A stretch of DNA of 64,000 nucleotides from the IMG/VR virus record IMGVR_UViG_3300047369_000529, positions 1 to 64,000 of that record; one strand, 5' to 3'. Below, piece after piece: positions 30,370 through 47,348 of this stretch. The notes below the pieces were generated by a model. It worked only from the letters and a program-made list of their open reading frames with translations, ran no database searches and was not told the DNA's origin. The translations under genes and the position numbers were made by a program. The stretch's first letter is position 1. Each line of letters starts with the position of its first letter. The DNA is from a virus.

Positions 30370-30804
30370 ATGACAGAACAATCTAATAAATCTAAGATTG
30401 TCCAACTCGACGAATATCTAGCAAACCAAAGATCAGAATGGACTTCTAAAATTAAGGAATTAACCGAAAATTTAAAAGAAGGAATTAACCTGGAAGAAGT
30501 TAGCTCATATACATTGAGTTATAGGCAGATTTTAGTTGAAAACCTTGCAACTATAGGAGGTAAAATAAGAACACAAAAAGGAACTGTCGATAAGATGTAT
30601 AAACAAAAATGGATTGAATATTATAAGTTTGATTATAAGATTACGGATAAACAAAGAGAAAGGTTTATTGAAGCGGATCTTTCAGACGACAAGCAAATTT
30701 TGGATTTACTTGAAAGCCAAAAGGCCTTCATCGAAGGTTCAGTAAAAACTCTTGATAATATGGGCTTTGCAATAAAGAATCGCCTTGATATTTCAAGATT
30801 GTAA
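30370..30804 (+). CDS. uvsY: recombination mediator UvsY-like
   Basis: 144 aa helical; EYY...FIEAD...GFAIKN C-terminal motif; adjacent to uvsW. Confidence 0.7.
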   Translation: MTEQSNKSKIVQLDEYLANQRSEWTSKIKELTENLKEGINLEEVSSYTLSYRQILVENLATIGGKIRTQKGTVDKMYKQKWIEYYKFDYKITDKQRERFIEADLSDDKQILDLLESQKAFIEGSVKTLDNMGFAIKNRLDISRL

Positions 30805-30822
30805 AAAAAGGTTAAATGAAAA

Positions 30823-32331
30823 TTGATTTTAACTCTAACGGAAGACAATCAGTTTCTTAGAATAGACGAAGCTGAGGAATTAGAATTAGAGCAGATTAAA
30901 ATATCTTTAACTAAAAGAATTGATAGTTGGAGATTTAATCCTCTAGTTAAAAAAGGAATATGGGACGGATATGTTTCATATATTAAAGACGATAAGTGGA
31001 TTCCTGCTGGTCTTTGGAGATATGTTATGCTCATATGTAAGGAGTATAAGTTTGACCTAAAACTCAATGGAATTCAAAGACTTTTTGATAGAAACATAAA
31101 TGCAGAATCCTTTGAAGAATGGGCTTTAGAATTTTTTAAGGGTAGTAAATTTACGCCAAGAGACTATCAGGTAGAAACATCATTTAACATTCTTAAATTT
31201 AGAAGGTGCTTAGCTGAATTAGCGACTTCAGCCGGAAAAACACTTATTAGTTTTTTAACAGTCGCATACATGTTAGAAAAAGAAAAAGCAGAAAAGATAT
31301 TATTTATAGTTCCTAATGTTTCTTTAGTCGTACAGGCTCACGAAGATTTTCATGAATACAATAATAAGAATAGAATAAAACTAAAAATACAACAGATATA
31401 CGCAGGTCAAAAAATAAAGTCAGATCGAAATGTAGTAATAGGTACATATCAATCTCTAGTTAAAAAATCCAAAGAATACTTTCAACAATTCGATGCAGTT
31501 ATTGTAGATGAAACACACAAAGCAAAGTCCAATTCTATTAAGACGATATTACAAAAATGTACTAACGCAAAATATAAGTATGGTTTATCAGGTACAATTC
31601 CTAAAGATGGATCTTTGGACAAGTTAACGTTAATGAGTCAGACAGGTCCAGTAATCAGCGAAGTAAAAGCAAACTTTTTACAAAGAGAAGGACATATTGC
31701 AAAATGCAAAGTAAAGGTTATTGAAATGGATTATGCTCCTGAAGCAAGCAAAAAGGCATTCGAAGAATTAGCATTTAACAAGTATGATAGAAAAGATGTT
31801 TTTCAATTAGAACAAAACTATATAATTAATTCTTTTGGTAGATTAAACTTTATATGTAGCGTTATAGGAAGAGTTCCTAAGAATTCATTGGTGTTATTTC
31901 ATAGAATTGAACACGGTAAAAAAATATACGAACATCTAAGGCAAAACACTGACAAAAGAGTCTATTATGTAGACGGTGGAACAGATAAAGATATTAGAGA
32001 AGAATATAAAAAGAAAATGGAAGCAGGTGACGAGGTAGTTATCGTCGCGAGTTATGGTACTTTCTCAACGGGTATATCAATTAAGAAAATACATAACATT
32101 TTCTTTACAGAATCTTTTAAGTCCGAGGTAATCATCAGACAGTCTATAGGTAGAGGTCTAAGACAGCATGAATCAAAAGAGGCAGTATTAATAGTTGATT
32201 TTGTAGATGACATTAGAACTGACGAATGGGACAATTATCTATATAAACATAGCAAGGCTAGACAGAAAATATATAAACAAGAGAAATTTGAGTATAGTAT
32301 TAAGAAAGTCAAATTTGAAGGAGATATATAG
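30823..32331 (+). CDS. uvsW: SF2 DNA helicase UvsW
   Basis: WDG, PRDYQ, ATSAGKT, DETH, GLSGT, STGISIK, QSIGRGLR. Confidence 0.93.
   Translation: MILTLTEDNQFLRIDEAEELELEQIKISLTKRIDSWRFNPLVKKGIWDGYVSYIKDDKWIPAGLWRYVMLICKEYKFDLKLNGIQRLFDRNINAESFEEWALEFFKGSKFTPRDYQVETSFNILKFRRCLAELATSAGKTLISFLTVAYMLEKEKAEKILFIVPNVSLVVQAHEDFHEYNNKNRIKLKIQQIYAGQKIKSDRNVVIGTYQSLVKKSKEYFQQFDAVIVDETHKAKSNSIKTILQKCTNAKYKYGLSGTIPKDGSLDKLTLMSQTGPVISEVKANFLQREGHIAKCKVKVIEMDYAPEASKKAFEELAFNKYDRKDVFQLEQNYIINSFGRLNFICSVIGRVPKNSLVLFHRIEHGKKIYEHLRQNTDKRVYYVDGGTDKDIREEYKKKMEAGDEVVIVASYGTFSTGISIKKIHNIFFTESFKSEVIIRQSIGRGLRQHESKEAVLIVDFVDDIRTDEWDNYLYKHSKARQKIYKQEKFEYSIKKVKFEGDI
32322..32330 (+). promoter_or_regulatory. putative late promoter AGATATATA
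   Basis: 33 bp before the first internal-protein gene. Confidence 0.55.
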
Positions 32332-32363
32332 AATAACGAAACAAAATTAAATTTTATAATAAA

Positions 32364-33941
32364 ATGGCAGAAATCAATAAAATTTCTTCTTTTAAGTCTT
32401 TTACTGAGATCAGAAAACAAGAGAACGCTAATAAACTTAGAGAAGAAAATAATTTAAAAAGACAAGAGGCTGTTGGTAAAATAGCCACTATATTAGATGA
32501 ACTAGGACTAACTTCTTTTGAAGGTTTAGAAGAAGATCAAAAAGAAACAATCATCTCAAAAATATTTGGAGACGTTTCTGAAGAAGAACTTGCAGAAATT
32601 GAGGTTGAAGTTGAAAAAGAAGTTGAAGAAACGGAAGAGTCGGAAGAGCAAGTTTCAGAAGCCTTAGATATTAGATATAAGAGAGATGCTAAAAAGGTAG
32701 TAACTCAATTTAAAAAGATTTTTGCAGAGTTAGGAAGTCTAACAGCAGATAAAGTAACTTATTTAGGAGCTATTAAATATTTATATAATGAAGCTCTAAC
32801 TGATGCTAACTTTCATTCAGCGAGATCAGCTACTGAAAAAATTATTAAAGGTAGATTAAACAGTATTTCAGTTTCTCCTGAATCTTTAGGAAAACATGCA
32901 ATTATCGTTGGTGCAAAAAACATTATGAAAATTCTAGATGAATATTATTCTAGAATTTCAAATGCAGCGGGATGGTCAGGTCCTGGAATTGCTGAAGGAA
33001 CAGCAATGTATTTAGAATCTATTGGTGAAGGTTCAACCGCTGAAAAATTATTAGTAGGTTTTAATGCAGCTAATGAGAGCGTTGAATACCAATTATCAGA
33101 AGAAGAAATATCATTAAAGGAGTCTAACCTTATTTTTGAAGCAACCGTTACAATGGACGCTATGAATCCTAAAGATAAAGATTTCTTAAAATTCTTAAAG
33201 AAGAATAGCGTTAAAATTATCGATATGGTAAAATCAGGACCAACTGGTCACCCTGAAATTACTATGCAGGGTAAAAGAGAGGATTTAGAAGCGGTATTAG
33301 CAGATGGAGAATTAGGATGGGATGATGCAGGTTTAGCAGACTATATTGAAGAGTCAGCTACAATCGTTCTTAATGAAGGAACTAGAGGCCAATTTGGTAA
33401 AATAGACAGAAAGGGAAATATTACTTCAGTTTATACTCACTACGATTCTTACCCAGAAAATATGTTACCTATTATTAAATCAACATTTAAAAGCGGTAAG
33501 AATGTAGATTTCGTTCTTAAGAATGGAGACAATTCAGGTCTAGATAAAGACATTAAGAAAATTAATTTCTACGGCGGAGATTCTAATTTAATGACAGGTA
33601 ATATTAAGAGCATTAATGATTATATTAAAAACGCAAATTACGAAGCTGGTGCAGAATTCGTTTATTTATGGGATGAAAAATCTAAAAAATGGATGATGGC
33701 AGACATTTATGCAGAAACTGGATTAGTTCCAGCATTTGAATCTGTAGTTAACGAATCAGAAGCTGAAAATATCTTACAAGATCTTTTAGACGAAAGAGGA
33801 GGAGACATGGGAGAATTACATGGCATGGAAATGGAAGATGCTTTAGATACAGTTGAATCTTATGGACATAAAGGTTCTAAAGCAAAAAAGATTGCACAAG
33901 AATTAGTTTCACTATGTAACGAATCCGTGGCTACTAACTAA
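32364..33941 (+). CDS. putative capsid-internal modular polyprotein
   Basis: ISSFKSFTE CTS-like start; modules delimited by VSE, IFE, LNE, ESVVNE. Confidence 0.55.
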   Translation: MAEINKISSFKSFTEIRKQENANKLREENNLKRQEAVGKIATILDELGLTSFEGLEEDQKETIISKIFGDVSEEELAEIEVEVEKEVEETEESEEQVSEALDIRYKRDAKKVVTQFKKIFAELGSLTADKVTYLGAIKYLYNEALTDANFHSARSATEKIIKGRLNSISVSPESLGKHAIIVGAKNIMKILDEYYSRISNAAGWSGPGIAEGTAMYLESIGEGSTAEKLLVGFNAANESVEYQLSEEEISLKESNLIFEATVTMDAMNPKDKDFLKFLKKNSVKIIDMVKSGPTGHPEITMQGKREDLEAVLADGELGWDDAGLADYIEESATIVLNEGTRGQFGKIDRKGNITSVYTHYDSYPENMLPIIKSTFKSGKNVDFVLKNGDNSGLDKDIKKINFYGGDSNLMTGNIKSINDYIKNANYEAGAEFVYLWDEKSKKWMMADIYAETGLVPAFESVVNESEAENILQDLLDERGGDMGELHGMEMEDALDTVESYGHKGSKAKKIAQELVSLCNESVATN

Positions 33942-33953
33942 ACATACAATAAC

Positions 33954-34157
33954 ATGAAAAAATTAATTGAATTTATTAAAAAGGCATTTAATGCAGTTAA
34001 GACCTGGGTTGTTGCAAACGGAGTTGAAGGTGTTTTAGGCCTTATCGCTGGACTTGCCCTATGGGCGTTTGGCTATAAAATCTATGCTGGATTTGCATTT
34101 GGCGTATTTGCAACTCGTAACTGGGACCTATTTAAATCCTGGGTAAAAGGATTATAA
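33954..34157 (+). CDS. small membrane protein (two Gly-rich hydrophobic segments)
   Basis: GVLGLIAGLALWAFG and IYAGFAFGVFA; basic amphipathic N-terminus. Confidence 0.55.
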   Translation: MKKLIEFIKKAFNAVKTWVVANGVEGVLGLIAGLALWAFGYKIYAGFAFGVFATRNWDLFKSWVKGL

Positions 34158-34221
34158 ATTAAAAAAAAAATTGGCTTATAATTTTTCTAGGTCGATTTTT
34201 TTAATTATATTAGTAATATAA

Positions 34222-35595
34222 ATGAAACTAGATAACAACTTCGTAGACTTTATTCAGCATCATGCAGATATGCAAGGTATGACTAGAGAAGAATATGTTG
34301 CTCATTTCTTATCAGAAAGATACGATAATAAAATTTTAACATTTGACGAATTTATCGTTGAGAAGTTTTCTAATCTACAAGAAGCTTTAATCTTAGAAGG
34401 CGGTGCTGCAGGGCATATGTCACATCCATTTGATGAGAAAGATTTAACGTTTGCAGATTTTAAAACAATAGTAAAATCAGGTCTTCAAGGAGAATTAAAC
34501 TTTGAAGAAGTTGCAACAGAAAAAACAGACGGCCAAAATTTATTTGCCACCGTAAGAAACGGAGTTACTCTATTTTCTAGAAATAAAGGCCAATTAATTA
34601 GCCCAGTCGATTTAGACGGGATTATAAAAATGTTTGAAGAGCATGAAGTTCCTTTAGTAAGAGAAACATATGTGTTTGCTGCTAAAGACCTAAATGAAGC
34701 TCTTCCAAAGATGAAGGATCAGTCTATATTTAATGAAGGTAAGAACTTTATTAATATGGAATTAATTTACTCTAAGAATCCTAATGTTATTTATTATGAA
34801 AGAGATGTTTTACAATTCCACGATATTAAGGAAACTGATGGAAATGGAAATATTATTGGAGAGCAAAAAATAGCAGGAGAGCTTGTTTCCGCATTAAAAG
34901 AAGTTGATGCTGATGTTCAAAAAACATTTACAATAATTCCCCCTCAAATATTAAAATTAGGAAAAGATATTGATTTTGAAAAAAATCATGCTAAATTTAT
35001 AAAACAAATTGAAGCACTAAGAGATCGTTATAATCTAACAGATAGTGACGAGGTTTCTAGGTATCATGAAATGTGGTGGAGAGAAACTATCGATGAAAAT
35101 TTCCCTAATCTACAACAAGACTATAAAGAAGGTTTATTATTAAGATGGGCCTATGGAGATAAGAAAACTCTTAACATGAGAAGTCTTGCAAAGGAAATAG
35201 GAAAAGATGAAGCAGCGGCGGTTAAGAAATTCGACAAAGAAGATGTTAAAAAGAAATATAAAGAAAACATTAGACCTTTCGAAGATTTATTTTTAGAATT
35301 AGGGTCTATAATTCTTAAAAATGCGTCCAATTTTGTAGCAGCTAATCCTGACAAAGAAATGCAAAGATTGCATAATCAGATTAGAACAGAGGCTGATAAA
35401 ATTAAGAAAGGCGGAAGCGTTGCTCAGATCGAAAAGGTAATGAAAGAATTAGAGAGATTAGATAGAATTGGTGGAGTAGAATCTATTATACCAACCGAAG
35501 GGATAGTTTTCGTATATAAAGGAAAAACTATGAAATTAACGGGTACATTTGCCGCTATTAATCAATTAATGGGCGTTATAAAGTACGGAAGATAA
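34222..35595 (+). CDS. ATP-grasp ligase-like (covalent nucleotidyltransferase superfamily) protein
   Basis: Motif I TEKTDGQN, motif III-like NMEL, motif IV EGIVF, motif V-like MKLTG; N-terminal GGAAGHM.HP after ILE. Confidence 0.6.
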   Translation: MKLDNNFVDFIQHHADMQGMTREEYVAHFLSERYDNKILTFDEFIVEKFSNLQEALILEGGAAGHMSHPFDEKDLTFADFKTIVKSGLQGELNFEEVATEKTDGQNLFATVRNGVTLFSRNKGQLISPVDLDGIIKMFEEHEVPLVRETYVFAAKDLNEALPKMKDQSIFNEGKNFINMELIYSKNPNVIYYERDVLQFHDIKETDGNGNIIGEQKIAGELVSALKEVDADVQKTFTIIPPQILKLGKDIDFEKNHAKFIKQIEALRDRYNLTDSDEVSRYHEMWWRETIDENFPNLQQDYKEGLLLRWAYGDKKTLNMRSLAKEIGKDEAAAVKKFDKEDVKKKYKENIRPFEDLFLELGSIILKNASNFVAANPDKEMQRLHNQIRTEADKIKKGGSVAQIEKVMKELERLDRIGGVESIIPTEGIVFVYKGKTMKLTGTFAAINQLMGVIKYGR

Positions 35596-35605
35596 ATAAT
35601 AAGAT

Positions 35606-37480
35606 ATGGCACTTAAAAAAATAAGACAAGTATTTCAAGAAACTAACATTAATGCATTTCAGGATCTTCTGAAAAATAGAATTTTAGTTACTGAAAAAAT
35701 ACAAGGTTCATCTTTTCACGTAAGAAGAAACGTAGAAAGGTTTGAATATTTTAAATCTGGAGATATTCGTATGAATATGATAGATAGAACTATCGTAGGA
35801 CTATACGAAACAGGGGTTAAACATATTCAAAGTTTAGATCCTTCAATTAAAGAAGAAATGCCAACGGATTGGAAATTTGGATTTGAATATCTTCCTGAAT
35901 TAGAAATATCACAATACAAATATACTAAACTTCCTAAGAATAATTTAATATTAACACATATACAAACGTTATCTGAGTCAGGTAAAGTTAAAAAAACTAT
36001 TTATGACCCTTCTGTTTTAAACAAATGGGCAAAAAAATTAGAAGTTCAAGGACCTAGCATAGTATTTGATGGAACTTTAAATCAAAATCAAAAAACAGAA
36101 TTAATAAATCTTTTATCTATGTCAGATAAAGAATTTGTAGAGTCGTTTGACTATGATAGATCTACGGATTTTAAAACTTCATTTACACAGAAAATAATAA
36201 AGATTTTTAATCCAAATCAAACTTCACCAATATTGAATGAAGATTTTGAGGTTGAGATTGATGGTCTAATAATTTCATTTATAGACGGAAAGAAAGTAAA
36301 ATCTTTTAAATTAGAAGACTTTACTAGAAACAACGAGAGCAACTCTAAGGAATCTAGTCACATGTATCAGATTACTATAGCTGATCTAATCGAATATCTT
36401 TCTTCATTTGACATGAACTCTGTTCAACTAAACGAAGAAACAGCAGATCTTAGGTACATTGAATTAATGTCCGTTATATTTAATAAATATGTAAATGAAA
36501 ATTCTACTAAATTTATAGGAGTTAACTTTGAATCAGCCGACTTTGCAAGCCATAGCGTATTTAAACTAAATAGTAAATACATTAAAAACGAAACCACACT
36601 TTCTTTAGTGGAAAACGAAATACTTTCAGAATTATTTAAAATAACGCTCGGATCTTTTAGAAAAAAGAGAAATAAAGAAAGCGATATTCTAAATAAAGAA
36701 ATGATAGAGCATTTAAATAATATAGTAGAAGAAATAGATAAAAAGATATTCGTTGAAAACACCGACGAAAATTCAATATATGACTTTAACAATTTTATAT
36801 TACATAACAAAGTAAAGACTAGTGTTAATTTAAATGAAGCGCTTAAGGTAGATCATCCTGAACAAGGAGGAGAATTAGTAAATATGTTTGTTGGTAGATT
36901 CCAACCATTTACACTTGGACATGCTAAAGTATTAGAAACTATACACAAAGAAAATGGATATCCTGTTGTAGTATTATTAGTCAAAGCAAAGAATAAGAAA
37001 AAAGAAGACGCTTTTAAAAGACCTTATGATGAAAAAACGCAACTTAAGATGTTTAAGGCGGTTCAAAAACAATATCCATTCCTAAAAGAAATTTTTGTAA
37101 TTCCAACAGGAGGTATTGATACTATGTTCAATGCAATGAGACCTAAATATGAACCTGTATTATGGGGAACAGGAAGTGATAGAATGAAAACTTACGGATT
37201 CCAAGTAAATAAAGATTCTTATAGAGAAGATCTTGGAGTTAGAAGCGACTTTAGATTATTTGAAATTCCAAGAACAGATGATAATATTTCAGCGACTCAG
37301 GTTAGAAACGCAATGCTAGACGGAGATGAAGGATTATTTAAGTCAACAACACCCAAAGCATTACATAAAATGTATGGCGAACTTAAGAAAAAATTAGAAG
37401 ATTCAGTAGGTACTTCAGAATCAAATGAAGTTGCTGAATCATTATTAACATTTAAACAATTTTTAGAAAACAATGGATAG
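35606..37480 (+). CDS. fusion: degenerate ligase-like domain plus HIGH-family cytidylyl/adenylyltransferase
   Basis: N-term TEKIQGSSF, DGLII, FKL; C-term VGRFQPFTLGH, GSDR, ISATQVR; domains separated by LNEA. Confidence 0.65.
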   Translation: MALKKIRQVFQETNINAFQDLLKNRILVTEKIQGSSFHVRRNVERFEYFKSGDIRMNMIDRTIVGLYETGVKHIQSLDPSIKEEMPTDWKFGFEYLPELEISQYKYTKLPKNNLILTHIQTLSESGKVKKTIYDPSVLNKWAKKLEVQGPSIVFDGTLNQNQKTELINLLSMSDKEFVESFDYDRSTDFKTSFTQKIIKIFNPNQTSPILNEDFEVEIDGLIISFIDGKKVKSFKLEDFTRNNESNSKESSHMYQITIADLIEYLSSFDMNSVQLNEETADLRYIELMSVIFNKYVNENSTKFIGVNFESADFASHSVFKLNSKYIKNETTLSLVENEILSELFKITLGSFRKKRNKESDILNKEMIEHLNNIVEEIDKKIFVENTDENSIYDFNNFILHNKVKTSVNLNEALKVDHPEQGGELVNMFVGRFQPFTLGHAKVLETIHKENGYPVVVLLVKAKNKKKEDAFKRPYDEKTQLKMFKAVQKQYPFLKEIFVIPTGGIDTMFNAMRPKYEPVLWGTGSDRMKTYGFQVNKDSYREDLGVRSDFRLFEIPRTDDNISATQVRNAMLDGDEGLFKSTTPKALHKMYGELKKKLEDSVGTSESNEVAESLLTFKQFLENNG

Positions 37481-38552
37481 GTACGATTTTGAAAGAGCAC
37501 TACATAGTGCTGCAAAAACCAATGCTGAAAATGAAGCGTTAATTATAGAATCCTATATTGGAGTTGCAACGACCGGAAGTAAATCTGCCCAACAGAATTT
37601 ATTTAATTCAATTAATAGAACATTTAAAAAGAATAAGTGTCCATGGCAAGGTGTTAAGTTTACTTCAACACAGGATGTTAAACAACAACCTGATGGTAGG
37701 TTATGGCTTTCTAAAATGGATGACGATACATTCGGAGTAGTTTTTCAATATTTAATGTTAAATAAAAGCGAAGCAAACGAATTGTTTAATATTGGAAGAG
37801 ACGATAATGGAATTGGTGCTGGAGAAATAATGCTAGCGTATATTGTAGAAAATATAAAAATAGGTGGAGGTGCGGCCGATACTGACTTAGAATTATATAA
37901 TGAAAGGTGGTCACCAATTAAACCACCCCTTGGTAAATGTGAGTTAAAAGAAGCTCAAATGTCAAAGGGCATGTTACAAAATTGGAGAACAGGTGCAAAA
38001 CACCAGGGAATTAATAGTACTTATGTACCGAAGTTAACGGCATTATATGACGCAGTAAAATATAATATTGAAGAAATCAACCCGGACGGAGATGGTAAAG
38101 ATATGGCTGCCGGTGGAGGTTGGATAAATGAATGGGGAACTGTAGGTGGAAAAAGATTTAAGCATATTCAAAATTTAACTAAGACAGATATTCAGGCCCT
38201 TTCTTCTAGTGAAAGAGATTTTAAAATAGGTCCTGGAGATAAAGATAACGGCGCATTAGTAATTAAATTTAATGACGTAGAATTAGGAAAGCTAAGTGAC
38301 TCTAAAACTGCAGAAAAAATTAAAAGTATAATAGAGACTGAGCCTTCCGTTAGAACATTTACTGAAATACAAGACGATGTAATTTCAGCAGTAGGAGATA
38401 TACCTACTCCATTCCTTTTTATAGAGTCTAAAGATCATGAAATAGTAGCTTTTCACTATTACAAGAAATTACCTGGAAAAACTAGCGAATTACAAATATA
38501 TTCTATTACACAAGGTAAATTTAAATATAAAATAAAGCCTAACCGAGTTTAA
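37473..38552 (+). CDS. hypothetical protein, possible PD-(D/E)XK nuclease fold
   Basis: GIGAGE...DTDL...CELK arrangement. Confidence 0.4.
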   Translation: MDRYDFERALHSAAKTNAENEALIIESYIGVATTGSKSAQQNLFNSINRTFKKNKCPWQGVKFTSTQDVKQQPDGRLWLSKMDDDTFGVVFQYLMLNKSEANELFNIGRDDNGIGAGEIMLAYIVENIKIGGGAADTDLELYNERWSPIKPPLGKCELKEAQMSKGMLQNWRTGAKHQGINSTYVPKLTALYDAVKYNIEEINPDGDGKDMAAGGGWINEWGTVGGKRFKHIQNLTKTDIQALSSSERDFKIGPGDKDNGALVIKFNDVELGKLSDSKTAEKIKSIIETEPSVRTFTEIQDDVISAVGDIPTPFLFIESKDHEIVAFHYYKKLPGKTSELQIYSITQGKFKYKIKPNRV

Positions 38553-38572
38553 ATAAACAAATACAAATAAAA

Positions 38573-41200
38573 ATGAGCACTAAAAAAACATTTGAAAGCT
38601 TTGTAAATTCAATGAATGAAAACGTTGATTTATATAAAGTATATAAAAGAGTTTCTGGAAAATACTCTTTAAGAAAACCTTCTTATTGGGGAGATCTATT
38701 TAATCAAAGAGCTTCTATCCCGTTAAAAGAATTAAGTAAATATTCTTCTGAATTAGATTCATTAGAAGTCTATACTACTAAAGAATTAGGATGTCATCCA
38801 GATTATCCTATGCAATCAAATTTTAAGGTTCAAGTTCCTCAAGTATTCGTACTATATTGTAATACTGAAAGGGGCGAATTAGGAGAGTATTATGGAATGT
38901 CAATTCTTGTAAATACTGAAGGTGCAACATATCCAAGATATGCATGTGGTATGCCAGATTTCGAACCAGAACTTCATAACTTTGCAAATGGAATTCCTGA
39001 AAGCTATTTAAATATTGTAACAACAGGTGCTCAAATGTTACATGAAAAAATGATAGCTGAAGGTCAATTCTCATGGATGACACAAGATACTGGAGATCAG
39101 ATTGGTTCAGAACCTCAAAATAAAATAGACGTTTACATGTACGACAACCAGGGTAATTCTTGGAAAGAAAGAGACTATGAAGGCTATGGAGAATTTGGCG
39201 GTATGGATTACTATGACTTAGTTGCAACTATGAACGGATATACTGAAGAAGACGTTAAAACAATGAAAGGTTCATTTAAAGAATTAAGACAACTTGGTAT
39301 CGATTTAGCGTTTGGTAAAATAAAAACTAAAGATAAAAAGCGCAAAACTCTTTTTCCAGCTTTAGTCACAGATCCTAGGTATAATTGGAAAAGACATGAT
39401 TTTACTCAAGAAGCAGAATCAGATCCAAACCAATCATGGTATCAAGAGCCTGAGTATGACGATTATGAAGATGAATATGATGATTTCTACAATGAAAAAG
39501 AAATCAAGGGTAAAGCTGCCGGCAACTCTATAAAGATGGCACCAGCAGGTAGAACTATTGAAATCAATGGTATCACTTACACATGCCTTGGTAAAGGTAA
39601 GTGGGAAGGACCTGATGGCGAAAAAGTAAATTGGATTGAAGTTTCTGCTATGGCATCAGCATTAGGAAACAAGAAAGTTGTATATGAATATGATGGCTAT
39701 GAGTCAGTAGTTACTGAAGCTAAAGGAGATTTAAAAGTAGGAGATAAGGGTATAGATTATAATGATAATGTTGTAAAAATAATTGCTATTGGTAATTTTA
39801 AGAAAATTGCTAAAATGTTTAAGAAAGAAATGAAAGCAGACGCAGCTGATTGGGGCTACGAAGAAGGAGCTGGAGATTTCTATCTTGCTAAAAACATAGA
39901 AGCGACTGAAGGTAATGTTGGAGATTTAGCAATTTATCCAGTAAAATACGACATGGCTAACTACTGGGGTTTAGATAAACTAGATGAATCATCAGTTACT
40001 GAAAACTATGAAGTTATTTATAGCGACGGCGTAAGTGCTATGAAAAAGTTTAGAAGCGAGAAACAAGCACTAGACTTTATGAAGAAAACTATCTCTTCTA
40101 ATAAAAAACTAAGAGATATTGCAGTTTACAAACCAGGAATGTATTCAACTACTCAAACTGAACTAGTTGTTAAATTCTGGGGAGATGGTTCTTATTTAGA
40201 TAACGTTTCTAAAAAAGATAAAGATTTAGCTTCTAAAAAACTAGAAGAATCTACCTTAAATGAAGCTCGTTCTATTAACAAGATTTCAAAGGAGTTTGGA
40301 GAAACGGTTAATAAAATGAAAGATATAGTTAAAGTATATGTTGCTGCTGAAGAAGGAAGTGATGAAAAATCAAAATTAAGACAACAATTAATTGATTTAA
40401 CAGCAAAGAAAAAGTCTTTAACTAAAGAATTAGACGACGCCGTAGCTGGAAAAAACAAAGATGTAAAATTAGTTATAACAGAAGGTGTAATGTCAAATAT
40501 TCATTTGATGGCATCCGATTCTAAAAACTGGGATGATTTCTTAAAAAAGTTTAAGAAAGATTATAAGAAAGTATTTCAAAATACACCTGACTTTATGGAT
40601 TGGTTATATGGCATGTATAAGGATATGGCTCCTTTAAAAGCAGGCGAAAAAGTAGAAGAAAAATATAACAAGAAAAAGTTATTAAAAGCAATTAAGAATA
40701 AAGACGACATGTTTATTCAGTTAGGAGATGGTACTGAACTAATAGTTTATAACCCGGATTCTAATAATGACGACAATGCAGAAATGTGGCACGATGATGT
40801 GGTATTTGCGATCGATCAAGACGGAGAAGAACATGAGGTTAAATACTCAGATATTGCAGGTATTGGTGAATCTGTAGTTTCTGAATCTAAAATTCAAATA
40901 AAAAGAAAGTATACAGACAAGCATCCAGCAAAAACAGCTGGAAGATCTGCAAGGGTTAGAAACGCAATGATAGAAGCTCTTTCGGATGGAATATTAACAG
41001 AAGAAGAATTCAATAATATTTTAAAAGAAAAATCTATTGACAGTAAAAGATGGATGAGAAGAAATTCTAGATTTTTTATGGTAAGTGAAGAAGGAATCAA
41101 GCTTTCTAAATATGGAAAAAGAATTTTTAAAGAAATTACGAATAAGCAAGTAGTTAACTTAACTCTAGAATCTTTTATAAAGGATATATACAATAAATAA
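38573..41200 (+). CDS. putative capsid-internal modular polyprotein
   Basis: KTFESFVNSMNE start; linkers IAE, ESVVTE, ESSVTE, ESTLNE, VITE, ESVVSE. Confidence 0.6.
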   Translation: MSTKKTFESFVNSMNENVDLYKVYKRVSGKYSLRKPSYWGDLFNQRASIPLKELSKYSSELDSLEVYTTKELGCHPDYPMQSNFKVQVPQVFVLYCNTERGELGEYYGMSILVNTEGATYPRYACGMPDFEPELHNFANGIPESYLNIVTTGAQMLHEKMIAEGQFSWMTQDTGDQIGSEPQNKIDVYMYDNQGNSWKERDYEGYGEFGGMDYYDLVATMNGYTEEDVKTMKGSFKELRQLGIDLAFGKIKTKDKKRKTLFPALVTDPRYNWKRHDFTQEAESDPNQSWYQEPEYDDYEDEYDDFYNEKEIKGKAAGNSIKMAPAGRTIEINGITYTCLGKGKWEGPDGEKVNWIEVSAMASALGNKKVVYEYDGYESVVTEAKGDLKVGDKGIDYNDNVVKIIAIGNFKKIAKMFKKEMKADAADWGYEEGAGDFYLAKNIEATEGNVGDLAIYPVKYDMANYWGLDKLDESSVTENYEVIYSDGVSAMKKFRSEKQALDFMKKTISSNKKLRDIAVYKPGMYSTTQTELVVKFWGDGSYLDNVSKKDKDLASKKLEESTLNEARSINKISKEFGETVNKMKDIVKVYVAAEEGSDEKSKLRQQLIDLTAKKKSLTKELDDAVAGKNKDVKLVITEGVMSNIHLMASDSKNWDDFLKKFKKDYKKVFQNTPDFMDWLYGMYKDMAPLKAGEKVEEKYNKKKLLKAIKNKDDMFIQLGDGTELIVYNPDSNNDDNAEMWHDDVVFAIDQDGEEHEVKYSDIAGIGESVVSESKIQIKRKYTDKHPAKTAGRSARVRNAMIEALSDGILTEEEFNNILKEKSIDSKRWMRRNSRFFMVSEEGIKLSKYGKRIFKEITNKQVVNLTLESFIKDIYNK
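41182..41190 (+). promoter_or_regulatory. putative late promoter GGATATATA
   Basis: 22 bp before 41213. Confidence 0.5.
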
Positions 41201-41212
41201 AAACTATAGAAA

Positions 41213-43042
41213 ATGAAACTATATACTAACTTCGATAATTTTATCAATGAAGCAAAGGTTATGAAGCAGAAAGATACTGCTAAAATAGCACAAAAATTAG
41301 CATCGGCTCTTTCAAAGGCAGATGGCAAAGAATTTACAATTTCTAAAGATTCATTAGATGCTGGAGGATGGGATCTAGATATGGATGGAGAAGAATTCGC
41401 AGGTGGAACTTATTTTATTGGAGATGCTGGAGAAATAGTAAACGCAGCAACAAGTAATGACGTATATGGTCACATGGACGACAGTGAAGCTGAATTAGTT
41501 AAAAAGATTAAAAAGGGTAAATTTGCAAAATACAGAGCAACTGAATCAGTAGTTAACGAAGCATCTCTTTCGGGTGTAGAATTTGGAAACGATGACGACA
41601 TTCACCCAACTAAATTTAAACCTTTAACTACATCTTTAAAGAAGAATAAAGTTAAAATGGAAGTTGAAAAAGAAGAAGGTTACCATGGCTACCCAGAAGT
41701 TAAATTAACGGGTAAAAGAAAGGACATCGAAAAGGTTTTAGCTGATGTATGGGGACCAGACTCAATCTCTGACTATGAAGATTATTTTGAATCCAAAGTT
41801 AATGAAGCTAGATTTAAAAAAGGACAATACATTAAAGCCACTGCCGATAGCGATGATTTTGATGGAGATGTTTACGATGTAACTAACGACGTAGATGGTA
41901 GTACGATTTACAAAGATTCATCATTCGAAATTTATGGAATTAATAGAAATGAAGTTATTCTTTGGAGTGACGAGGATGAAGTAGAATACTCAATAGATCC
42001 GGATGATCTTAAACATTTTGTTAAAGAATCATTAGATATTGAACTTAATGAAGCTCTTAAGTCTTCTAAACTAAGAAACTTAATAGACATAAGACAGGGT
42101 GGTAAGCAACTAATGCAGGGTATATATGGTCTTGCTAAAGTAGCATTAGATAAAGTAACCGACGACATGGTTATCACTAATTCAAATCCAGTTGAAGTTT
42201 ATAAGAAAGCAAAAACATACGGAAATGTATTAGTATTTTGGATTTCTAGAAACGAAAAGGAAAATCCTTACACACCTAGAAATAGTTATGGTGGAAAAGA
42301 TATTATTCCAGGAAATACCTTATTAGCAGTCTCAAATGGTAAAAACGAAATGTTTGACAATCATGCTGCATATACTAGAGAGTATGTGGATGGAAAACAA
42401 AGAAGTAAAACTACAAGATCTTTAAAGAATAGAGGAAGATACCCTGGTTCTAAAGACACTGTTGGGGTAGATAAATCTCATAGTACATGGAGTGGAACAG
42501 GCTTAGGAAATATTAAAAGAATCGCAGAGGTTTCAGACGAATGTTACATTATTAATTTAGACGCTGTTAGAGATAGACTTTCTACAAGTAATAAAGTATC
42601 GCAAAGATTTTCTCAAAAAGCCGATGCTACCGCTTTTGATAATCCAAAAGATATTAAACAAGCAAACATCACTAAATATCAATCAATTTTAGCACAAAGA
42701 GCAGATAATCCAGATAAAATAGACAAACAAGTTAAAGAAATTATTGAAGATGCTCATCAATTCTTAATGGCCGGTTTAGCTAAAAAAGAAATGGGAGACT
42801 ATAATGAATTATCAATAGGAAAAGATCCTAAAGGAAGAGATATTAAACCTAGAGATTTAACCAATTATATTTCAAATATATTGTCAGATTATCAAGGATA
42901 TGTTTCGGCATACGTTAATGCAAAAACTGAAGAAGAAAAATATGGAACTTCAAGCGATTGGTATAAAAGAGATGCTAAACGTAAAGCTCTAGAGCTTAAG
43001 CAGCGAATGGCTAAATGGGATAACAAGAACATAGTTTGGTAA
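41213..43042 (+). CDS. putative capsid-internal modular polyprotein
   Basis: MKLYTNFDNFINEA start; linkers ESVVNE, ESKVNE, ELNE. Confidence 0.6.
   Translation: MKLYTNFDNFINEAKVMKQKDTAKIAQKLASALSKADGKEFTISKDSLDAGGWDLDMDGEEFAGGTYFIGDAGEIVNAATSNDVYGHMDDSEAELVKKIKKGKFAKYRATESVVNEASLSGVEFGNDDDIHPTKFKPLTTSLKKNKVKMEVEKEEGYHGYPEVKLTGKRKDIEKVLADVWGPDSISDYEDYFESKVNEARFKKGQYIKATADSDDFDGDVYDVTNDVDGSTIYKDSSFEIYGINRNEVILWSDEDEVEYSIDPDDLKHFVKESLDIELNEALKSSKLRNLIDIRQGGKQLMQGIYGLAKVALDKVTDDMVITNSNPVEVYKKAKTYGNVLVFWISRNEKENPYTPRNSYGGKDIIPGNTLLAVSNGKNEMFDNHAAYTREYVDGKQRSKTTRSLKNRGRYPGSKDTVGVDKSHSTWSGTGLGNIKRIAEVSDECYIINLDAVRDRLSTSNKVSQRFSQKADATAFDNPKDIKQANITKYQSILAQRADNPDKIDKQVKEIIEDAHQFLMAGLAKKEMGDYNELSIGKDPKGRDIKPRDLTNYISNILSDYQGYVSAYVNAKTEEEKYGTSSDWYKRDAKRKALELKQRMAKWDNKNIVW
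41542..41562 (+). repeat. 21-bp exact direct repeat copy 1 (linker ESVVNEA)
   Basis: TGAATCAGTAGTTAACGAAGC, identical to 45340-45360. Confidence 0.85.
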
Positions 43043-43059
43043 AATAAGACTTAAAAATT

Positions 43060-43782
43060 ATGAATAATAAAATAGAAGAAAAATTTAAGTGGGAAACTAC
43101 TGGCGACAAGGATGATAGAGAGTTCTTAACAGGTTTAGTTCAAAGAACTAAATTAATTTACGGAGATATTAAACCTGCTAAATACGATCTTAACGACTTT
43201 GATAAAGACTTAGATAAATTATTAAAGAAATTTGTAAAAGATTCTGATTCTTTTTTTAAGGCAAAGGACGATAGAGACTATGGAGCTAGTAATAAAATAC
43301 ATGCAGATTGGATGAAAGCTGCTCAAAAAGCATTTAAACATGTTACTACAAATACTGCATGGAGAGGTCAATTAAATACATTCACTAGAAATTTATCAAC
43401 TATTTGGCAAGTTCACATGGAAGCAGAGGCTGGAAGAACAGGAAACAGAGGCTATAAAGTTCATAAGAGACAAGCCTTTCAAAAACAGTTTGAACAAGTA
43501 AAATTGTATGAACAGTTTATTAACGAAAGATTTAACGCTAGAAAAGTAAAGAAAGAACTAGAAGGTTTTGGCTTTAAGAACGTTGATGCTAGTGGAAACG
43601 AAATTTCAGTTGAAACGGGCTCTTATGAAAATCCATTTGGTTCAGAACAGAGTTACACTTTCTTTTGGAATGGTGAAACAGTCTGGTGTGAATCAGAAGA
43701 AGCTGAAACAGAATGGATGGGAGAAGTAACTACTGCAGAACAATTTGCAGAAACTATGGAAACAGCAGAAGGCTGGTCATAA
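43060..43782 (+). CDS. putative capsid-internal protein (two modules)
   Basis: Internal QVKLYEQFINE identical to the N-terminus of the next ORF. Confidence 0.55.
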   Translation: MNNKIEEKFKWETTGDKDDREFLTGLVQRTKLIYGDIKPAKYDLNDFDKDLDKLLKKFVKDSDSFFKAKDDRDYGASNKIHADWMKAAQKAFKHVTTNTAWRGQLNTFTRNLSTIWQVHMEAEAGRTGNRGYKVHKRQAFQKQFEQVKLYEQFINERFNARKVKKELEGFGFKNVDASGNEISVETGSYENPFGSEQSYTFFWNGETVWCESEEAETEWMGEVTTAEQFAETMETAEGWS

Positions 43783-43798
43783 TTAAAAAACAAGAACT

Positions 43799-44116
43799 AT
43801 GAAACAAGTAAAACTATATGAGCAATTTATAAATGAATCAGCAATTGATACTTTAGCTACTGAAATTGATGATGCTAAAGTTTATGATGCTGTTTCGGAT
43901 GGAGGTTCTGTTGACGCAAGATCTACTAAAAAAACATGGGACGATGGTGTTCCAGTTTTAAAGTATATTGCTAGAGCTCCAAAAAAATCTGTTAAATTAC
44001 CTAAGAAATTTAAAGTAGTAGACGACACTAAATATGGATGGTGGTATTTACAAGTATCAGGAGTATGGTATGGAATCGAACAAGATGATTATGGAACTCC
44101 ACCATTTGAATATTAA
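43799..44116 (+). CDS. small internal head protein-like (T4 IP-style CTS)
   Basis: MKQVKLYEQFINE resembles the T4 IP capsid-targeting sequence MKTYQEFIAE. Confidence 0.6.
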   Translation: MKQVKLYEQFINESAIDTLATEIDDAKVYDAVSDGGSVDARSTKKTWDDGVPVLKYIARAPKKSVKLPKKFKVVDDTKYGWWYLQVSGVWYGIEQDDYGTPPFEY

Positions 44117-44119
44117 GAT

Positions 44120-46126
44120 ATGGAATTAAACGAAAACGAAAACTTATCACTTGGCGATATGGCCGGAATGGGAGAAGTCTCTTTACCATCTGAAACATCA
44201 GTTGGATCAGGGGATATTCCAGCCGGAAAAGGAGATGCCGAAGAAGAGTATAAGAAGAAGAGAAATAAAAAGAAACAACGCGAAATGAAAAACATTATAT
44301 CATTTGAATCTTTCGGATCACTTGATGAAGGTAAAACAATATCTTCTTCTAAAATATCTATGATGGGTGCAAGAGTTCTTAATAAAATTAGCATCGGTAC
44401 CATATTTGATACAGAAGATGGAAACTATGAAATTACGGATTATGGCCGACAGGCAAATGCATTTAAAGAATTTGAAGCAGAACATAATGGTAAAAAAGTA
44501 AAGGTAAAATTAACTGCAATGTATGGTGTTAAGTTAGAAGTAACTGACGATGTACGCAGCGCTAGATTTAATAAAGAAGTAAAGCTAAATTCTATTATTT
44601 TAGAATCGGTTAATGAAGGTAAGTTTGACGGTATTGCAGATTTAGTAAAATCTTTACATTTCGAAATGGATCCTAAAACCGCAGAAGAAAAGAAAATCGA
44701 ACTAGGTAAAAGACAAGGTGAAGTTTCAAGAAGAAAGCAAATTGAAGGTGGTGAATATTCACTAAGAAGATTTAGAAAAGAGATTAAATACGATGAGACC
44801 GGAGAAGATCTTGGTGTATTTAAACCCGGTAGCTATATGGCTGCTACTTCTATATTAGGCGATGGTCCACATAAGAAAGCCGTTAAGAAAGTAAGATGGA
44901 ATAGAAAGAAATACGATCAATGGATTGAAGATATGGCAGCTAACGATGGTTGGAAGAATGCATTCGATATGGCACAAAATGCTAAACACGAACCAGGTCT
45001 ATTACAATGGGCTAAGAAAGAATTTAGAGGTGAAGACGTAATGCAAAGAATTCAATGGGATATTGAAGGTTACGCAGAATCAGTAGTTACTGAATCTATT
45101 AGTAAATCTACTAAAATACATTGTATCGCAACACCAGCTCCTAAGTCAATGCTTAAGGATGAGTTAGAAGAATTATTCGGAGATGATTATAGAAATATAG
45201 TTACAGAAGTTCAAGACGATGAAGGTTATGAATCAGTGTTAGTATTTAATCTTACTAAAAGAGACATTAAATTAATAGAAGATAATATTGGAGATGTATT
45301 AATCTGGGAATATTCAATTAAACCAGGTAAATTAATTAATGAATCAGTAGTTAACGAAGCTGAAAAGTATATCACTGATAAATTTAAAGTAGGTGATAAA
45401 ATTAAAACTAATTTTGGTGAATGGGAAGTAATTGAAACTGATTATGCACCTAAAAAGAGTTTTATAGCACCTTTTATATTTAAAGGAAAGAATATAGAAA
45501 GAGTAAACATACCTAATCCACCTAAAACTAACAAGAATGCGGTAGGTTACAAAGTAACAGACGGTGCTAAATATCCAACTATTGGTTTCTTATATCAATA
45601 TAAAGATATTACTAAACTTGCAACAGTTGGCGTTGATGAATCAATAGTTACTGAAGCTGAAAGTGTAAAGGTAGGAGAATATATTAAAACTCAATACGGT
45701 TATTTCTATAAAAGAGTCGACGGTAAAGTTGGAGGACAAGAAGCTTTCGTTGAAATAAAGAAAGGAAAAGAAGGAAAGAGAAAAACAAGTATTCATGATA
45801 CAGTTAGCTTTGAAATAGTTGATAAAGATGCTGCATTCGAATCATTGGTTACCGAAAAGAAACACGATAGAGAAGATACTATAAAATTCATAAAGAAATA
45901 CATGAGATTCGTAAAAACCACTGAAGAATTTAATGGTTCTCAGGGTGGTATATGGGTTTCAGGTGAAGATGGAGATGAATATAAAGGAGTAACAATCTAT
46001 GATTACTATACGTCTGGTAAATCATATGAATTAGGTGTAAATATAAAGTGGGAAAAAGAGTTAAATGAAAGAGGATGGTACAGCGAATGGTATGATGCAG
46101 GAACTGTAATGATCTGGGAAATATAA
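44120..46126 (+). CDS. putative capsid-internal modular polyprotein
   Basis: Internal MKNIISFESF (ATG 44285); linkers ESVNE, ESVVTE, ESVVNE, ESIVTE, ESLVTE. Confidence 0.6.
   Translation: MELNENENLSLGDMAGMGEVSLPSETSVGSGDIPAGKGDAEEEYKKKRNKKKQREMKNIISFESFGSLDEGKTISSSKISMMGARVLNKISIGTIFDTEDGNYEITDYGRQANAFKEFEAEHNGKKVKVKLTAMYGVKLEVTDDVRSARFNKEVKLNSIILESVNEGKFDGIADLVKSLHFEMDPKTAEEKKIELGKRQGEVSRRKQIEGGEYSLRRFRKEIKYDETGEDLGVFKPGSYMAATSILGDGPHKKAVKKVRWNRKKYDQWIEDMAANDGWKNAFDMAQNAKHEPGLLQWAKKEFRGEDVMQRIQWDIEGYAESVVTESISKSTKIHCIATPAPKSMLKDELEELFGDDYRNIVTEVQDDEGYESVLVFNLTKRDIKLIEDNIGDVLIWEYSIKPGKLINESVVNEAEKYITDKFKVGDKIKTNFGEWEVIETDYAPKKSFIAPFIFKGKNIERVNIPNPPKTNKNAVGYKVTDGAKYPTIGFLYQYKDITKLATVGVDESIVTEAESVKVGEYIKTQYGYFYKRVDGKVGGQEAFVEIKKGKEGKRKTSIHDTVSFEIVDKDAAFESLVTEKKHDREDTIKFIKKYMRFVKTTEEFNGSQGGIWVSGEDGDEYKGVTIYDYYTSGKSYELGVNIKWEKELNERGWYSEWYDAGTVMIWEI
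45340..45360 (+). repeat. 21-bp exact direct repeat copy 2 (linker ESVVNEA)
   Basis: TGAATCAGTAGTTAACGAAGC, identical to 41542-41562. Confidence 0.85.
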
Positions 46127-46143
46127 CTCTACTCATTAGTTTT

Positions 46144-46170
46144 AAACAATTTTAGAATGCTTTGTATAAC
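46144..46170 (+). promoter_or_regulatory. putative pre-replicative promoter AAAC-N16-GTATAAC
   Basis: Upstream of mgsA. Confidence 0.6.
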
Positions 46171-46187
46171 TACAAAGCATTTTTTAT
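46156..46187 (+). terminator. intrinsic terminator-like hairpin closing the internal-protein cluster
   Basis: AATGCTTTGTA-TAAC-TACAAAGCATT perfect 11-bp inverted repeat followed by T run. Confidence 0.7.
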
Positions 46188-46196
46188 TTATATAGT

Positions 46197-46589
46197 ATGG
46201 ACAAGATGAGATTCGCATTAATTGCGCATGATAACAAAAAAGCAGACATGGTAGCTTTTGTTTCTAAAAGACTTGATTTTTTTAATAATGAAGCTGTTGA
46301 TATTATTACCACAGGAACTACGGGTAAGAAGGTAAAGCACGCCGGAATCAATAGAGTTACCACTGTTCAAAGTGGGCCTTTAGGAGGAGATGCCGAAATA
46401 GCTGCCATGGTGGTGAGAGGTGAGGTTACTGGCGTGATATTCATGAGAGATCCCCTGGATAAACATCCACATGATGTAGATATTTCAATGTTAATGAGGT
46501 TATGTGACGTCCACGATGTCCCCTTGGCTACTAATTATAAAACGGCTAGCATCTTAATTAAATGGTATCGTTCTAAATATAAAATATAA
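46197..46589 (+). CDS. mgsA: methylglyoxal synthase
   Basis: ALIAHD, TGTTG, SGPLGGD, DPL..HPHDVD, LMRLCDVHDVPLATN: all MgsA signature motifs. Confidence 0.95.
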   Translation: MDKMRFALIAHDNKKADMVAFVSKRLDFFNNEAVDIITTGTTGKKVKHAGINRVTTVQSGPLGGDAEIAAMVVRGEVTGVIFMRDPLDKHPHDVDISMLMRLCDVHDVPLATNYKTASILIKWYRSKYKI

Positions 46590-46614
46590 ACAATTTTTAA
46601 TTTAGCAGTATAAT
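46588..46614 (+). promoter_or_regulatory. putative pre-replicative promoter AAAC-N16-GTATAAT
   Basis: Upstream of 46622. Confidence 0.6.
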
Positions 46615-46621
46615 AAACAAT

Positions 46622-46867
46622 ATGGATAACATTATCTTCAGGCCCGGAAATTATAAAACATGGTCAATTAAAGCGATAGAGAAAATCGAAGCTGTCATTG
46701 ATTCGTGTGTCACCTTCGATCATCTAGATTCTGCTAAAAAATTAGTTGATCAGTTTTCTATTATTACAGCACTTGAGCAAGATGATGAAAAATCTATTGA
46801 AATAATTATTCACCAATTGTGGCTTAGAATTAAGTTACAAGAAAATAAAATAAATGGATCAAAATAA
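46622..46867 (+). CDS. hypothetical protein
   Basis: 81 aa, downstream of an AAAC-N16-GTATAAT motif. Confidence 0.55.
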   Translation: MDNIIFRPGNYKTWSIKAIEKIEAVIDSCVTFDHLDSAKKLVDQFSIITALEQDDEKSIEIIIHQLWLRIKLQENKINGSK

Positions 46868-47348
46868 AGGTAAAATAGGATTTACAGCAGGGAACTTCGA
46901 TCTTCTCCATCCTGGGTATATTTACACATTTGAAACAGCAAAAGAACACTGTGATTACTTTATGGTATTTCTACAAAGAGATCCATCTGAAACTAGATAT
47001 ACTAAATATAAACCAGTAATTCCTCTTTATGAAAGATATAAAACTTTAATGGCGATTAAATACGTAGACGAGGTGGTTACGTATCAAACAGAAGAAGACC
47101 TTTTAAACTTAATCGAGTTTTATAAACCAGACGTAAGAATTTTAGGAGACGATTATATTGGTAAAAGATTCACTGGAGATCATATGCCAATCGAGGTTAT
47201 TTATACAACTAGGTCTCATAATTGGTCAACAACCAGAATTAAAGATTTAATAACTAAGCAAACCATCTTACAGAATCCTTCTATTATAGAAGAAAACGTA
47301 AAGTCATTAACAGCTGACGAAGCGGCTAAAATAATTAATAACAAATGA
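46854..47348 (+). CDS. glycerol-3-phosphate cytidylyltransferase (TagD)-like nucleotidyltransferase
   Basis: AGNFDLLHPGY (HxGH variant HPGY), ER...L....VDEV, LGDDY, R.H.WSTT. Confidence 0.8.
   Translation: MDQNKGKIGFTAGNFDLLHPGYIYTFETAKEHCDYFMVFLQRDPSETRYTKYKPVIPLYERYKTLMAIKYVDEVVTYQTEEDLLNLIEFYKPDVRILGDDYIGKRFTGDHMPIEVIYTTRSHNWSTTRIKDLITKQTILQNPSIIEENVKSLTADEAAKIINNK

Follow-up and report, generated by a model that had tools for sequence, protein, structure and literature searches.

We analyzed a window of 64,000 nucleotides (nt), namely the first 64 kilobases (kb) of the 79-kb virus contig IMGVR_UViG_3300047369_000529 (contig G000; 32% G+C), in which the open reading frames (ORFs) between 32364 and 46126 are strings of small, directly abutting modules, and in which a short linker recurs in frame. 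Proteins A to F are encoded on the plus strand. Protein A (32364-33941; 525 amino acids) has its modules bounded near residues 99, 259, 338 and 464, where the homology ranges of relatives start or stop, and its module order differs in L042, L044, L047 and L058. Proteins B (38573-41200; 875 amino acids) and F (44120-46126; 668 amino acids) comprise approximately seven and seven modules, respectively, as judged from the ORFs and from the ranges and order of homology in relatives, while protein C (41213-43042; 609 amino acids) starts with an N-terminal tag, MKLYTNFDNFINE, followed by modules C1-C4. According to the ORF listing, 43060-44116 contains protein D, which consists of modules D1 and D2 and has VKLYEQFINE as an internal tag, and protein E1, which is tagged and free-standing. 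Modules A3 and C2 are paralogues (33169-33306 versus 41610-41747; approximately 71-73% nt identity over two stretches) with the common peptide GxPExxxxGKRxDxExVLAD, and represent one module type in two different ORFs.

The linker is encoded by an 18-nt motif, GAATCWGTAGTTAMYGAA, which specifies the peptide E-S-V-V-N/T-E. A scan for this motif (pattern GAATCAGTAGTTAMYGAA, up to three mismatches) gave 11 matches, all on the plus strand between 33738 and 45856 and only inside the ORFs of 32364-46126, against 0.28 expected; none of 100 shuffled sequences reached 11. An independent repeat finder likewise returned the linker as the top (largest) direct-repeat family of 32000-47000. Exact repeats extend to 21 nt at most, and a 21-mer, TGAATCAGTAGTTAACGAAGC, is present as exact copies at 41542 and 45340, in different genes just as the original prediction had stated, with a two-mismatch copy at 33737. 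When the whole contig was scanned at the peptide level, the motif was again found 11 times, in ORFs 32364-33941, 38573-41200, 41213-43042 and 44120-46126, with scattered look-alikes only elsewhere (note that the peptide count includes ESTLNE at 40247, which the DNA pattern missed). All linker copies are in frame, read E-S-x-(V/L)-x-E, and lie within long ORFs. The motif also clusters on one strand in four relatives (160-276 kb), in which a reversed control pattern gave no match. The observation of repeated, conserved linker DNA is confirmed, and each of the positions for which near-identical DNA had been claimed holds the motif on the plus strand.

The exact consensus occurs at 41543, 45077 and 45341, while the copies at 33738, 39701 and 45638 carry one mismatch, those at 40868, 39986 and 45839 two (the latter two were absent from the list of the original prediction), and those at 41789 and 42026 three. 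In protein A, ESVVNE at 33738-33755 (GAATCTGTAGTTAACGAA), detected by both the DNA and peptide scans, is the tail of module A4, and a decayed terminal linker, ESVATN followed by a stop (GAATCCGTGGCTACTAACTAA; 33921-33941), lies at the C-terminus. The DNA homology of module B2 starts at 39698-39716 in L041-L046, at the linker ESVVTE (39701-39718; GAGTCAGTAGTTACTGAA), and ends at 40003 in L043-L046, at the linker ESSVTE (39986-40003). Further along protein B, the linker ESTLNE (40247-40264) marks a start of homology at 40244 in some relatives and an end of homology at 40249 in others, and the identity of module B6 with L047 ends at the linker ESVVSE (40868-40885). In protein C, ESVVNE of exact consensus (41543-41560) and the double linker ESLDIE-LNE (42026-42052) are the left and right joints of an indel described below, and the homology of module C2 with L042 ends at 41810, by the linker ESKVNE (41789-41806). 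In protein F, ESVVTE of exact consensus (45077-45094) and ESIVTE (45638-45655) are the left and right joints of another indel, the homology of module F5 in L025-L034 starts at 45338-45356, at ESVVNE of exact consensus (45341-45358), and that of module F6 ends at 45826, by the linker ESLVTE (45839-45856).

The linkers end in hydrophobic-x-Glu, with Glu at P1 and a hydrophobic residue (V/L) at P3. T4 gp21 and its giant-phage homologues cut head proteins after a Glu that follows a short motif (PMC9026906, PMC3012670), and T4 internal proteins are directed into the prohead by N-terminal tags of ten residues, which are subsequently cleaved off (PMC9026906). Contig G000 encodes a T4-like portal, a Gp23-type major capsid protein and a gp21-type prohead protease (Peptidase_S77); the protease gene lies at 72634-74673 of the contig, beyond the window (PF03420, E=3.5e-10; PHROG head maturation protease, 3.9e-40), and a Peptidase_S77 protease was also found in four of the four relatives examined. 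The major capsid protein carries ESATGINE, followed by AE, at residues 19-26 near its N-terminus. Several ORFs of the block start with T4-like tags, and MKLYTNFDNFINE and MKQVKLYEQFINE resemble the T4 tag in both length and hydrophobic-x-Glu ending. Judged from these sequences, the module tail is most likely a cleavage site for the T4 gp21-type prohead protease, cut after the last Glu. Because the protease is present, the capsid protein bears a site and the ORFs bear T4-like N-terminal tags, we infer that the multi-module proteins are capsid-targeted, protease-cut cargo, a reading that is well founded but indirect. As a separate observation, the prohead protease (G000 72634-74673; L055:8634-10673) continues into a long fused region, acidic and coiled-coil in character, in which YLAE(K/N/S) motifs recur; this region is probably a scaffold with many cleavage sites of its own.

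Relatives of the window were collected by protein-guided scans of IMG/VR, which yielded 54 loci. Eight contigs from five samples (L013-L016 and L036-L039) are 96-99% identical to the window over 27.5 kb and differ from it by three indels only, all of them whole modules inside multi-module ORFs. A segment of 483 nt comprising C2+C3 (41549-42031) is absent from these contigs, with the linker at 41543 joined to that at 42026 and the protein C ORF being 448 instead of 609 amino acids long. The junction reads ACT-GAATCA followed by TTAGATATTGAA, in which the 5' part of linker 41543 is fused in register to the 3' part of the linker-like 42026, and the cut is placeable anywhere within the shared GAATCA. 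The second indel removes 561 nt (F4+F5) and its junction is an in-register hybrid of linkers 45077 and 45638. In the third, the closest relatives have 25 nt in place of module F2 (44314-44623); F2 is flanked by the degenerate linkers ESFGSLDE (44306-44329) and ESVNE (44603-44617), both followed by G and sharing TGAAGGTAA. The recent linker-to-linker joins are in register and without filler.

Indels also occur among L002, L022, L040 and L024 (85-97% mutual identity); they measure 198, 705, 228 and 147 nt, each a multiple of three, and all have their junctions in GAATC linker sequence. A seawater contig of 17.5 kb carries approximately 290 extra nt at linker 40868 with a linker on both sides, a replacement of 39474-39998 that ends in linker 39986, and a joint of 45068, just before linker 45077, to 45854 in linker 45839 with 29 nt of filler. 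Altogether, the breakpoints of module gain and loss map to linkers as had been anticipated, with two of the three recent indels being in-register linker-to-linker joins and more of them in other relatives. Identical 18-mers flank single modules in relatives G004 and G002; tandem duplication by unequal crossover was rejected as their origin, since the identical linkers, which are 228 nt (G004) and 183 nt (G002) apart, flank different single modules and not duplicates. An assembly artefact is also unlikely, as eight IMG/VR contigs, drawn from five samples, carry the deletion variants along with point differences of their own, and exact repeats do not exceed 21 nt. The joint of 41542 to 42026 seen in contigs of seawater runs X13 and X18 matches the IMG/VR variant, but its shorter side is 24 nt, below the criterion of 30-31 nt, and we did not count it as independent proof. 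Short-sided joints such as 33225 to 45335, 33911 to 37446 and 34965 to 40544 were disregarded, being likely repeats or other organisms.

Two control indels lie outside the multi-module ORFs in L024 and L002, one joint being a conserved ribosome-site-plus-start sequence, AAAACAAAGATGA. The control insertion of 349 nt (L024:8817-9148 versus L002:15257-15275) is bounded by the conserved start region TTAAAnnAAAACAAAGATGA, and the control indel of 387 nt (L002:11935-12319 versus L024:5857-5860) is a segment with a homologue of the window ORF 46197-46589, absent from L024. Because a control indel also uses a conserved short sequence, short-homology joining is suggested to be general in these genomes.

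In distant relatives the module order is scrambled. A4-A5-A2-A3-B2 follow one another in one frame in L044, and the orders are A4-A5-C1-C2-A2 and B7-B2-B3-B4-C4 in L042, A1-A3-A2...B6, B7...A4-C4 and E1-B5-B4 in L047, and B4/B5-F5-F2-F6-D2 in L031. A fixed module order among relatives, which the original prediction had named as an outcome that would count against it, did not occur. The modules of distant contigs are 95% (F2; in L028 and L030), 95.7% (B6; in L047), 87-91% (F5), approximately 90% (F6) and 87.6% (C2; in L042) identical in nt sequence to those of the window, while the backbone of the same contigs, i.e., the neighbouring enzyme genes, is about 68-75% identical. At base resolution, module identity sets in immediately past a Glu codon and stops within the linker that belongs to the module itself; a linker thus moves together with the module that precedes it, as the C-terminal tail of that module. 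Across loci, the tails of seven modules are followed by 28 or more distinct downstream sequences: in relatives, the A4 tail has at least five continuations, ACTGAATC (linker 41543) at least four, linker 45077 four, and the F5 tail seven. When the internal endpoints of BLAST matches were clustered, 18 of 70 clusters fell within 15 nt of a linker (4.2% expected; p=4e-10) and all 12 of 12 linkers were used. Module D2, which is fused behind D1 in the window via the internal VKLYEQFINE tag, is a free-standing gene starting with MKYLKLFEQFVNE in L025, L029 and L031. The tag-coding DNA (QVKLYEQFINE) is repeated at 43493-43527 and 43803-43837 with 83% identity, one copy being inside ORF 43060-43782 at the D1/D2 boundary, and N-terminal-tag DNA may be a second type of joint that fuses or splits free-standing tagged genes and multi-module ORFs. 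Another tag-coding DNA (MKLxxNFxxFI) is repeated at 34220-34253 and 41211-41244 with 79% identity.

We compared the synonymous identity of the linkers with two nulls built from the 79-kb contig minus linkers, an independent-codon model and a codon-pair Markov model, under which the eleven peptides were re-coded 20,000 times. The mean pairwise synonymous codon identity of the 11 linkers is 0.79, against 0.55 (standard deviation 0.06) under both nulls (p<=5e-5), and hence exceeds what codon bias would give. The excess sits mainly in the two valines: VV is encoded by GTAGTT in six of six linkers but in 16 of 69 VV dipeptides elsewhere, and VN by GTTAAC in three of four linkers against eight of 98 pairs elsewhere. 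Related contigs supplied 43 distinct linker contexts: GTT is the fourth codon in all 43, a valine at the third position is encoded by GTA in 28 of 31 cases without a single GTT, and the serine codons are TCA and TCT, with no AGY. Under a broader peptide pattern, the relatives show GTT in 49 of 56 and GTA in 28 of 31, at a genome usage of approximately 45% each among Val codons. The recurring TCA-GTA-GTT choice pointed out in the original prediction is accordingly family-wide with respect to GTA-GTT, and for serine the relatives use TCA or TCT. Between orthologous modules, identical Val codons are retained in 26 of 28 linker positions, against 65% elsewhere, and Glu codons in 83 of 86, against 83% elsewhere.

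The residue variants among linkers are single-base changes from the consensus (GTA/TTA/ATA; ACT/AAT/AAC), which is the pattern expected of copies that share descent and have changed little. All three ESVVNE linkers in the window use the rarer AAC, while the relatives mostly use AAT (there being few orthologous linkers), which suggests concerted evolution within the window. The decayed linker at 33921-33941 has drifted in both residues and codons (rare TCC and GTG); in L058, the same module ends in an intact ESVVNE that is followed by another module. This single natural control is consistent with a constraint that applies only where a module follows.

Based on the comparison of contigs, we regard it as probable, although far from certain, that the linkers act as short-homology recombination joints for module shuffling. 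The tail DNA of approximately 18 nt is the sole sequence common to otherwise unrelated modules and would provide the crossover point. Short-homology recombination between linker copies would delete, insert, replace and reorder modules, with the product staying in frame and the cleavage site being rebuilt. The route may be strand invasion of the T4 type by UvsX/UvsW/gp46-47, or copy-choice between direct repeats during recombination-dependent replication. Modules would circulate among related phages and every crossover would leave a hybrid linker, so that the linkers would evolve in concert; concerted evolution would in turn hold the synonymous sites alike and keep the linkers recombinogenic. 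We propose that the synonymous identity arises because the linkers are continually homogenized in this manner, without second-order selection. The original prediction had envisaged an integrase-free array with UvsX and UvsY encoded nearby. No tyrosine integrase (PF00589) was found in G000 or four relatives, one of which is 100% complete (14 of 14 control genomes were positive), and a RecA/UvsX-like recombinase is encoded at 58808-59917 (plus strand; Pfam RecA, E=2.5e-12), but a possible UvsY-like mediator (30370-30804, plus strand) was found as a weak match only (PHROG UvsY-like, E=7.8e-4). The latter and a UvsW-like helicase (30823-32331, plus strand; ResIII, DEAD and UvsW_N domains) together adjoin the multi-module block on its upstream side (30370-32331).

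Several results weigh against DNA homology at the linkers as the basis of shuffling, and most of them are what a different account, rather unlikely in our judgment, would lead one to expect: joining may occur anywhere, the survivors being those that keep the frame, whole modules and the cleavage site, with the linker identity hitch-hiking on young, often-exchanged modules. Approximately nine further breakpoint clusters map to degenerate hydrophobic-x-Glu sites that lack the DNA consensus (such as the F2 flanks, 40480, 40660 and 33375), and the consensus DNA is therefore not required. Several junctions share only six or seven exact bases (GAATCA, AGAATC), which is little for recombination of the UvsX type, and one crossover has two or three exact bases within an imperfect match of 11 of 18. 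The Ser, Asn and Thr codons of linkers are no more conserved than elsewhere, the excess being limited to Val and Glu, and Pfam and PHROGs recognized no function for any module. Besides, abutting modules leave no other neutral site for a junction. Since the modules abut, and since a product will probably persist only if it stays in frame and preserves modules, selection for such products must contribute to the placement of junctions, and the comparative data give the joint effect of homology and selection. Even so, the recent joins are in register without filler, GTA-GTT is retained family-wide even between orthologues that have diverged at other synonymous sites, for which hitch-hiking alone is insufficient, and the use of AAAACAAAGATGA, located at a gene start, as a control joint argues for a general mechanism of short-homology joining. 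We infer that DNA homology, over selection alone, places the junctions. The earlier claim that in-frame microhomologies could let modules be inserted, deleted or swapped agrees with the breakpoints, the mobility of modules and the codon excess.

The codon excess could alternatively reflect another function at the nucleotide level, such as a signal in messenger RNA (a translation pause at domain ends, or off-frame stops) or the target of a sequence-specific nuclease or recombinase. The conservation is indeed concentrated in a fixed core, GTAGTT flanked by GAA, and the consensus (e.g., 41543-41560 and 45077-45094) has stops in both other frames, i.e., TAG from GTAGTT in frame +1, and TAA from GTTAAY or TGA from ACTGAA in frame +2. 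We nevertheless consider such a function improbable, since no integrase was found in the five records, Pfam and PHROGs revealed no nuclease or recombinase domain in the multi-module block, and the junction positions vary within the linker, unlike site-specific cutting. The off-frame stops were also rejected as the cause of the codon choice, because they account for the GTA of the third codon and leave the GTT of the fourth unexplained in linkers ending in ACTGAA, where any Val codon gives TGA. As an aside, a mis-framed join or a frameshift at a consensus linker would end at once at these stops. Least probable of all, to the point of being nearly dismissible, is codon bias plus chance acting on a conserved peptide in an AT-rich genome. 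The codon preference is strong, with GAA making up 87% of Glu codons and GTT plus GTA 89% of Val codons, but at most one in 20,000 same-peptide simulations reached the observed identity under either null, GTAGTT encodes 23% of VV elsewhere, and the pattern is family-wide. The original prediction had allowed that codon bias alone could account for part of the identity; as the sole cause of it, codon bias is not supported.

The closest precedent for shuffling at the linkers is found in PeSLs, intergenic cassettes of an early promoter and a stem-loop terminator that move whole genes in T4-type phages (PMC2839356, PMC4122927). The two have in common short conserved motifs at the boundaries of variable units in hyperplastic regions, to which the indels and replacements of relatives map, as well as a T4-type, recombination-reliant setting and no integrase. 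They differ in that the linker here is an in-frame 18-nt coding sequence inside ORFs, which moves sub-gene modules and rebuilds a probable protease site. All linker copies being in frame within long ORFs, they are not intergenic promoter-terminator elements and are PeSL-like in their working only. Mini-circles between neighbouring motifs have been shown for PeSLs, while the linkers here were read from assembled contigs. The next-closest precedent is offered by the tail-fibre and adhesin genes of T-even phages, in which, according to the discussion of Tetart et al. (1998) in PMC3157838, conserved in-frame motifs act as crossover points. As far as that discussion goes, coding motifs within genes swap protein segments in frame in both cases, but the fibre and adhesin motifs are structural and change the host range, whereas the motif here is likely a cleavage linker between cargo modules, and units are gained, lost and reordered too. 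The T4-type principle of short-motif shuffling is widened here in that the motifs are coding linkers instead of intergenic regulatory cassettes and the units that move are sub-gene modules instead of genes.

With regard to the cargo, T4 internal proteins and Alt have an N-terminal capsid targeting sequence that is removed by gp21, and the ejection proteins of phiKZ and SPN3US are cut after Glu (PMC9026906, PMC3012670, PMC5694885). The present system resembles them in its gp21-family protease gene, T4-like N-terminal tags, and diverse, fast-evolving cargo genes of unknown function. In contrast to the single small genes with one site in T4, up to seven modules per ORF with repeated internal sites are found here, known from sequence alone. 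Polyvalent proteins contain many unrelated domains per polypeptide, are thought to be delivered with DNA and processed, and possess known conflict domains, often with embedded peptidases (Iyer et al., 2017; PMC5512222). The likeness is in the many domains per polypeptide and a domain content that varies strongly between relatives, while the prohead protease would here do the processing in trans, cutting at a uniform linker. Pfam and PHROGs detected neither conflict-related domains nor embedded peptidases in the multi-module ORFs, which are thus not polyvalent proteins as defined.

Phage counter-defence and host-takeover proteins evolve fast, and how new combinations originate without gene breakage is only partly understood. 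One short sequence appears to serve twice in the multi-module ORFs, i.e., as a cut point for many cargo proteins per ORF at the protein level and as a common in-frame joint at the DNA level. The linkers mark a large, uncharacterized pool of probable injected proteins in abundant seawater phages, suggest a simple rule for designing phage-head payloads that can be packaged and exchanged, and provide a clean test case for whether recombination itself can hold synonymous sites constant. We put forward more tentatively, as a possibility we would not rate as likely, that the phage family keeps a horizontally circulating pool of capsid-delivered effector modules, each with a dual-purpose tail (protease site plus 18-nt joint); modules might excise as circles between identical linkers and re-enter any other linker by a single homologous crossover, the linker DNA being kept constant by concerted evolution or by selection for exchangeability. 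If true, the circulating pool would parallel integron cassettes, but at the sub-gene level, in frame and without an integrase. Integrons rely on the tyrosine recombinase IntI and structured attC sites, and move whole genes. Both are ordered arrays of exchangeable units, each with its own joint at one end, but no integrase was found in the records searched here and the joints are coding.

The source of the window is an uncultured marine jumbo phage. Contig G000 has a CheckV completeness of 28%, and the full genome is therefore probably some 250-300 kb in size. Alongside the RecA/UvsX-like recombinase and the UvsW-like helicase described above, the contig encodes a gp32-like protein, an Mre11-like nuclease and a DnaB-like helicase. 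The closest capsid proteins in GenBank are those of an uncultured 462-kb phage (51% identity) and the Lak phages of Prevotella (38%), and the tail sheath is a distant kin of the sheaths of Flavobacterium and Tenacibaculum jumbo phages. The multi-module ORFs had no match to GenBank phages by megablast or tblastn, while many seawater metagenomes hold the same DNA as the window; the phage lineage is known from metagenomes only.

Across the multi-module block, the only matches from Pfam and PHROGs were a cytidylyltransferase domain (ORF 35606) and two PHROGs without a known function; for module C4, the protein atlas gave no usable match. Two large conserved ORFs lie at 34222-37480 within the variable block and are collinear in all relatives. 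The N-terminal 13-37 residues of the former (34222-35595) vary among relatives. The cytidylyltransferase-like domain occupies residues 427-568 of the latter (35606-37480). Immediately ahead of the stop codon of ORF 35606-37480 is a tag-like LLTFKQFLENNG (37440-37480), and the ORF that follows, 37473-38552, overlaps it. ORF 37473-38552 matched no family, and in a seawater contig this ORF (37476-38549) is replaced by 1133 unrelated bases.

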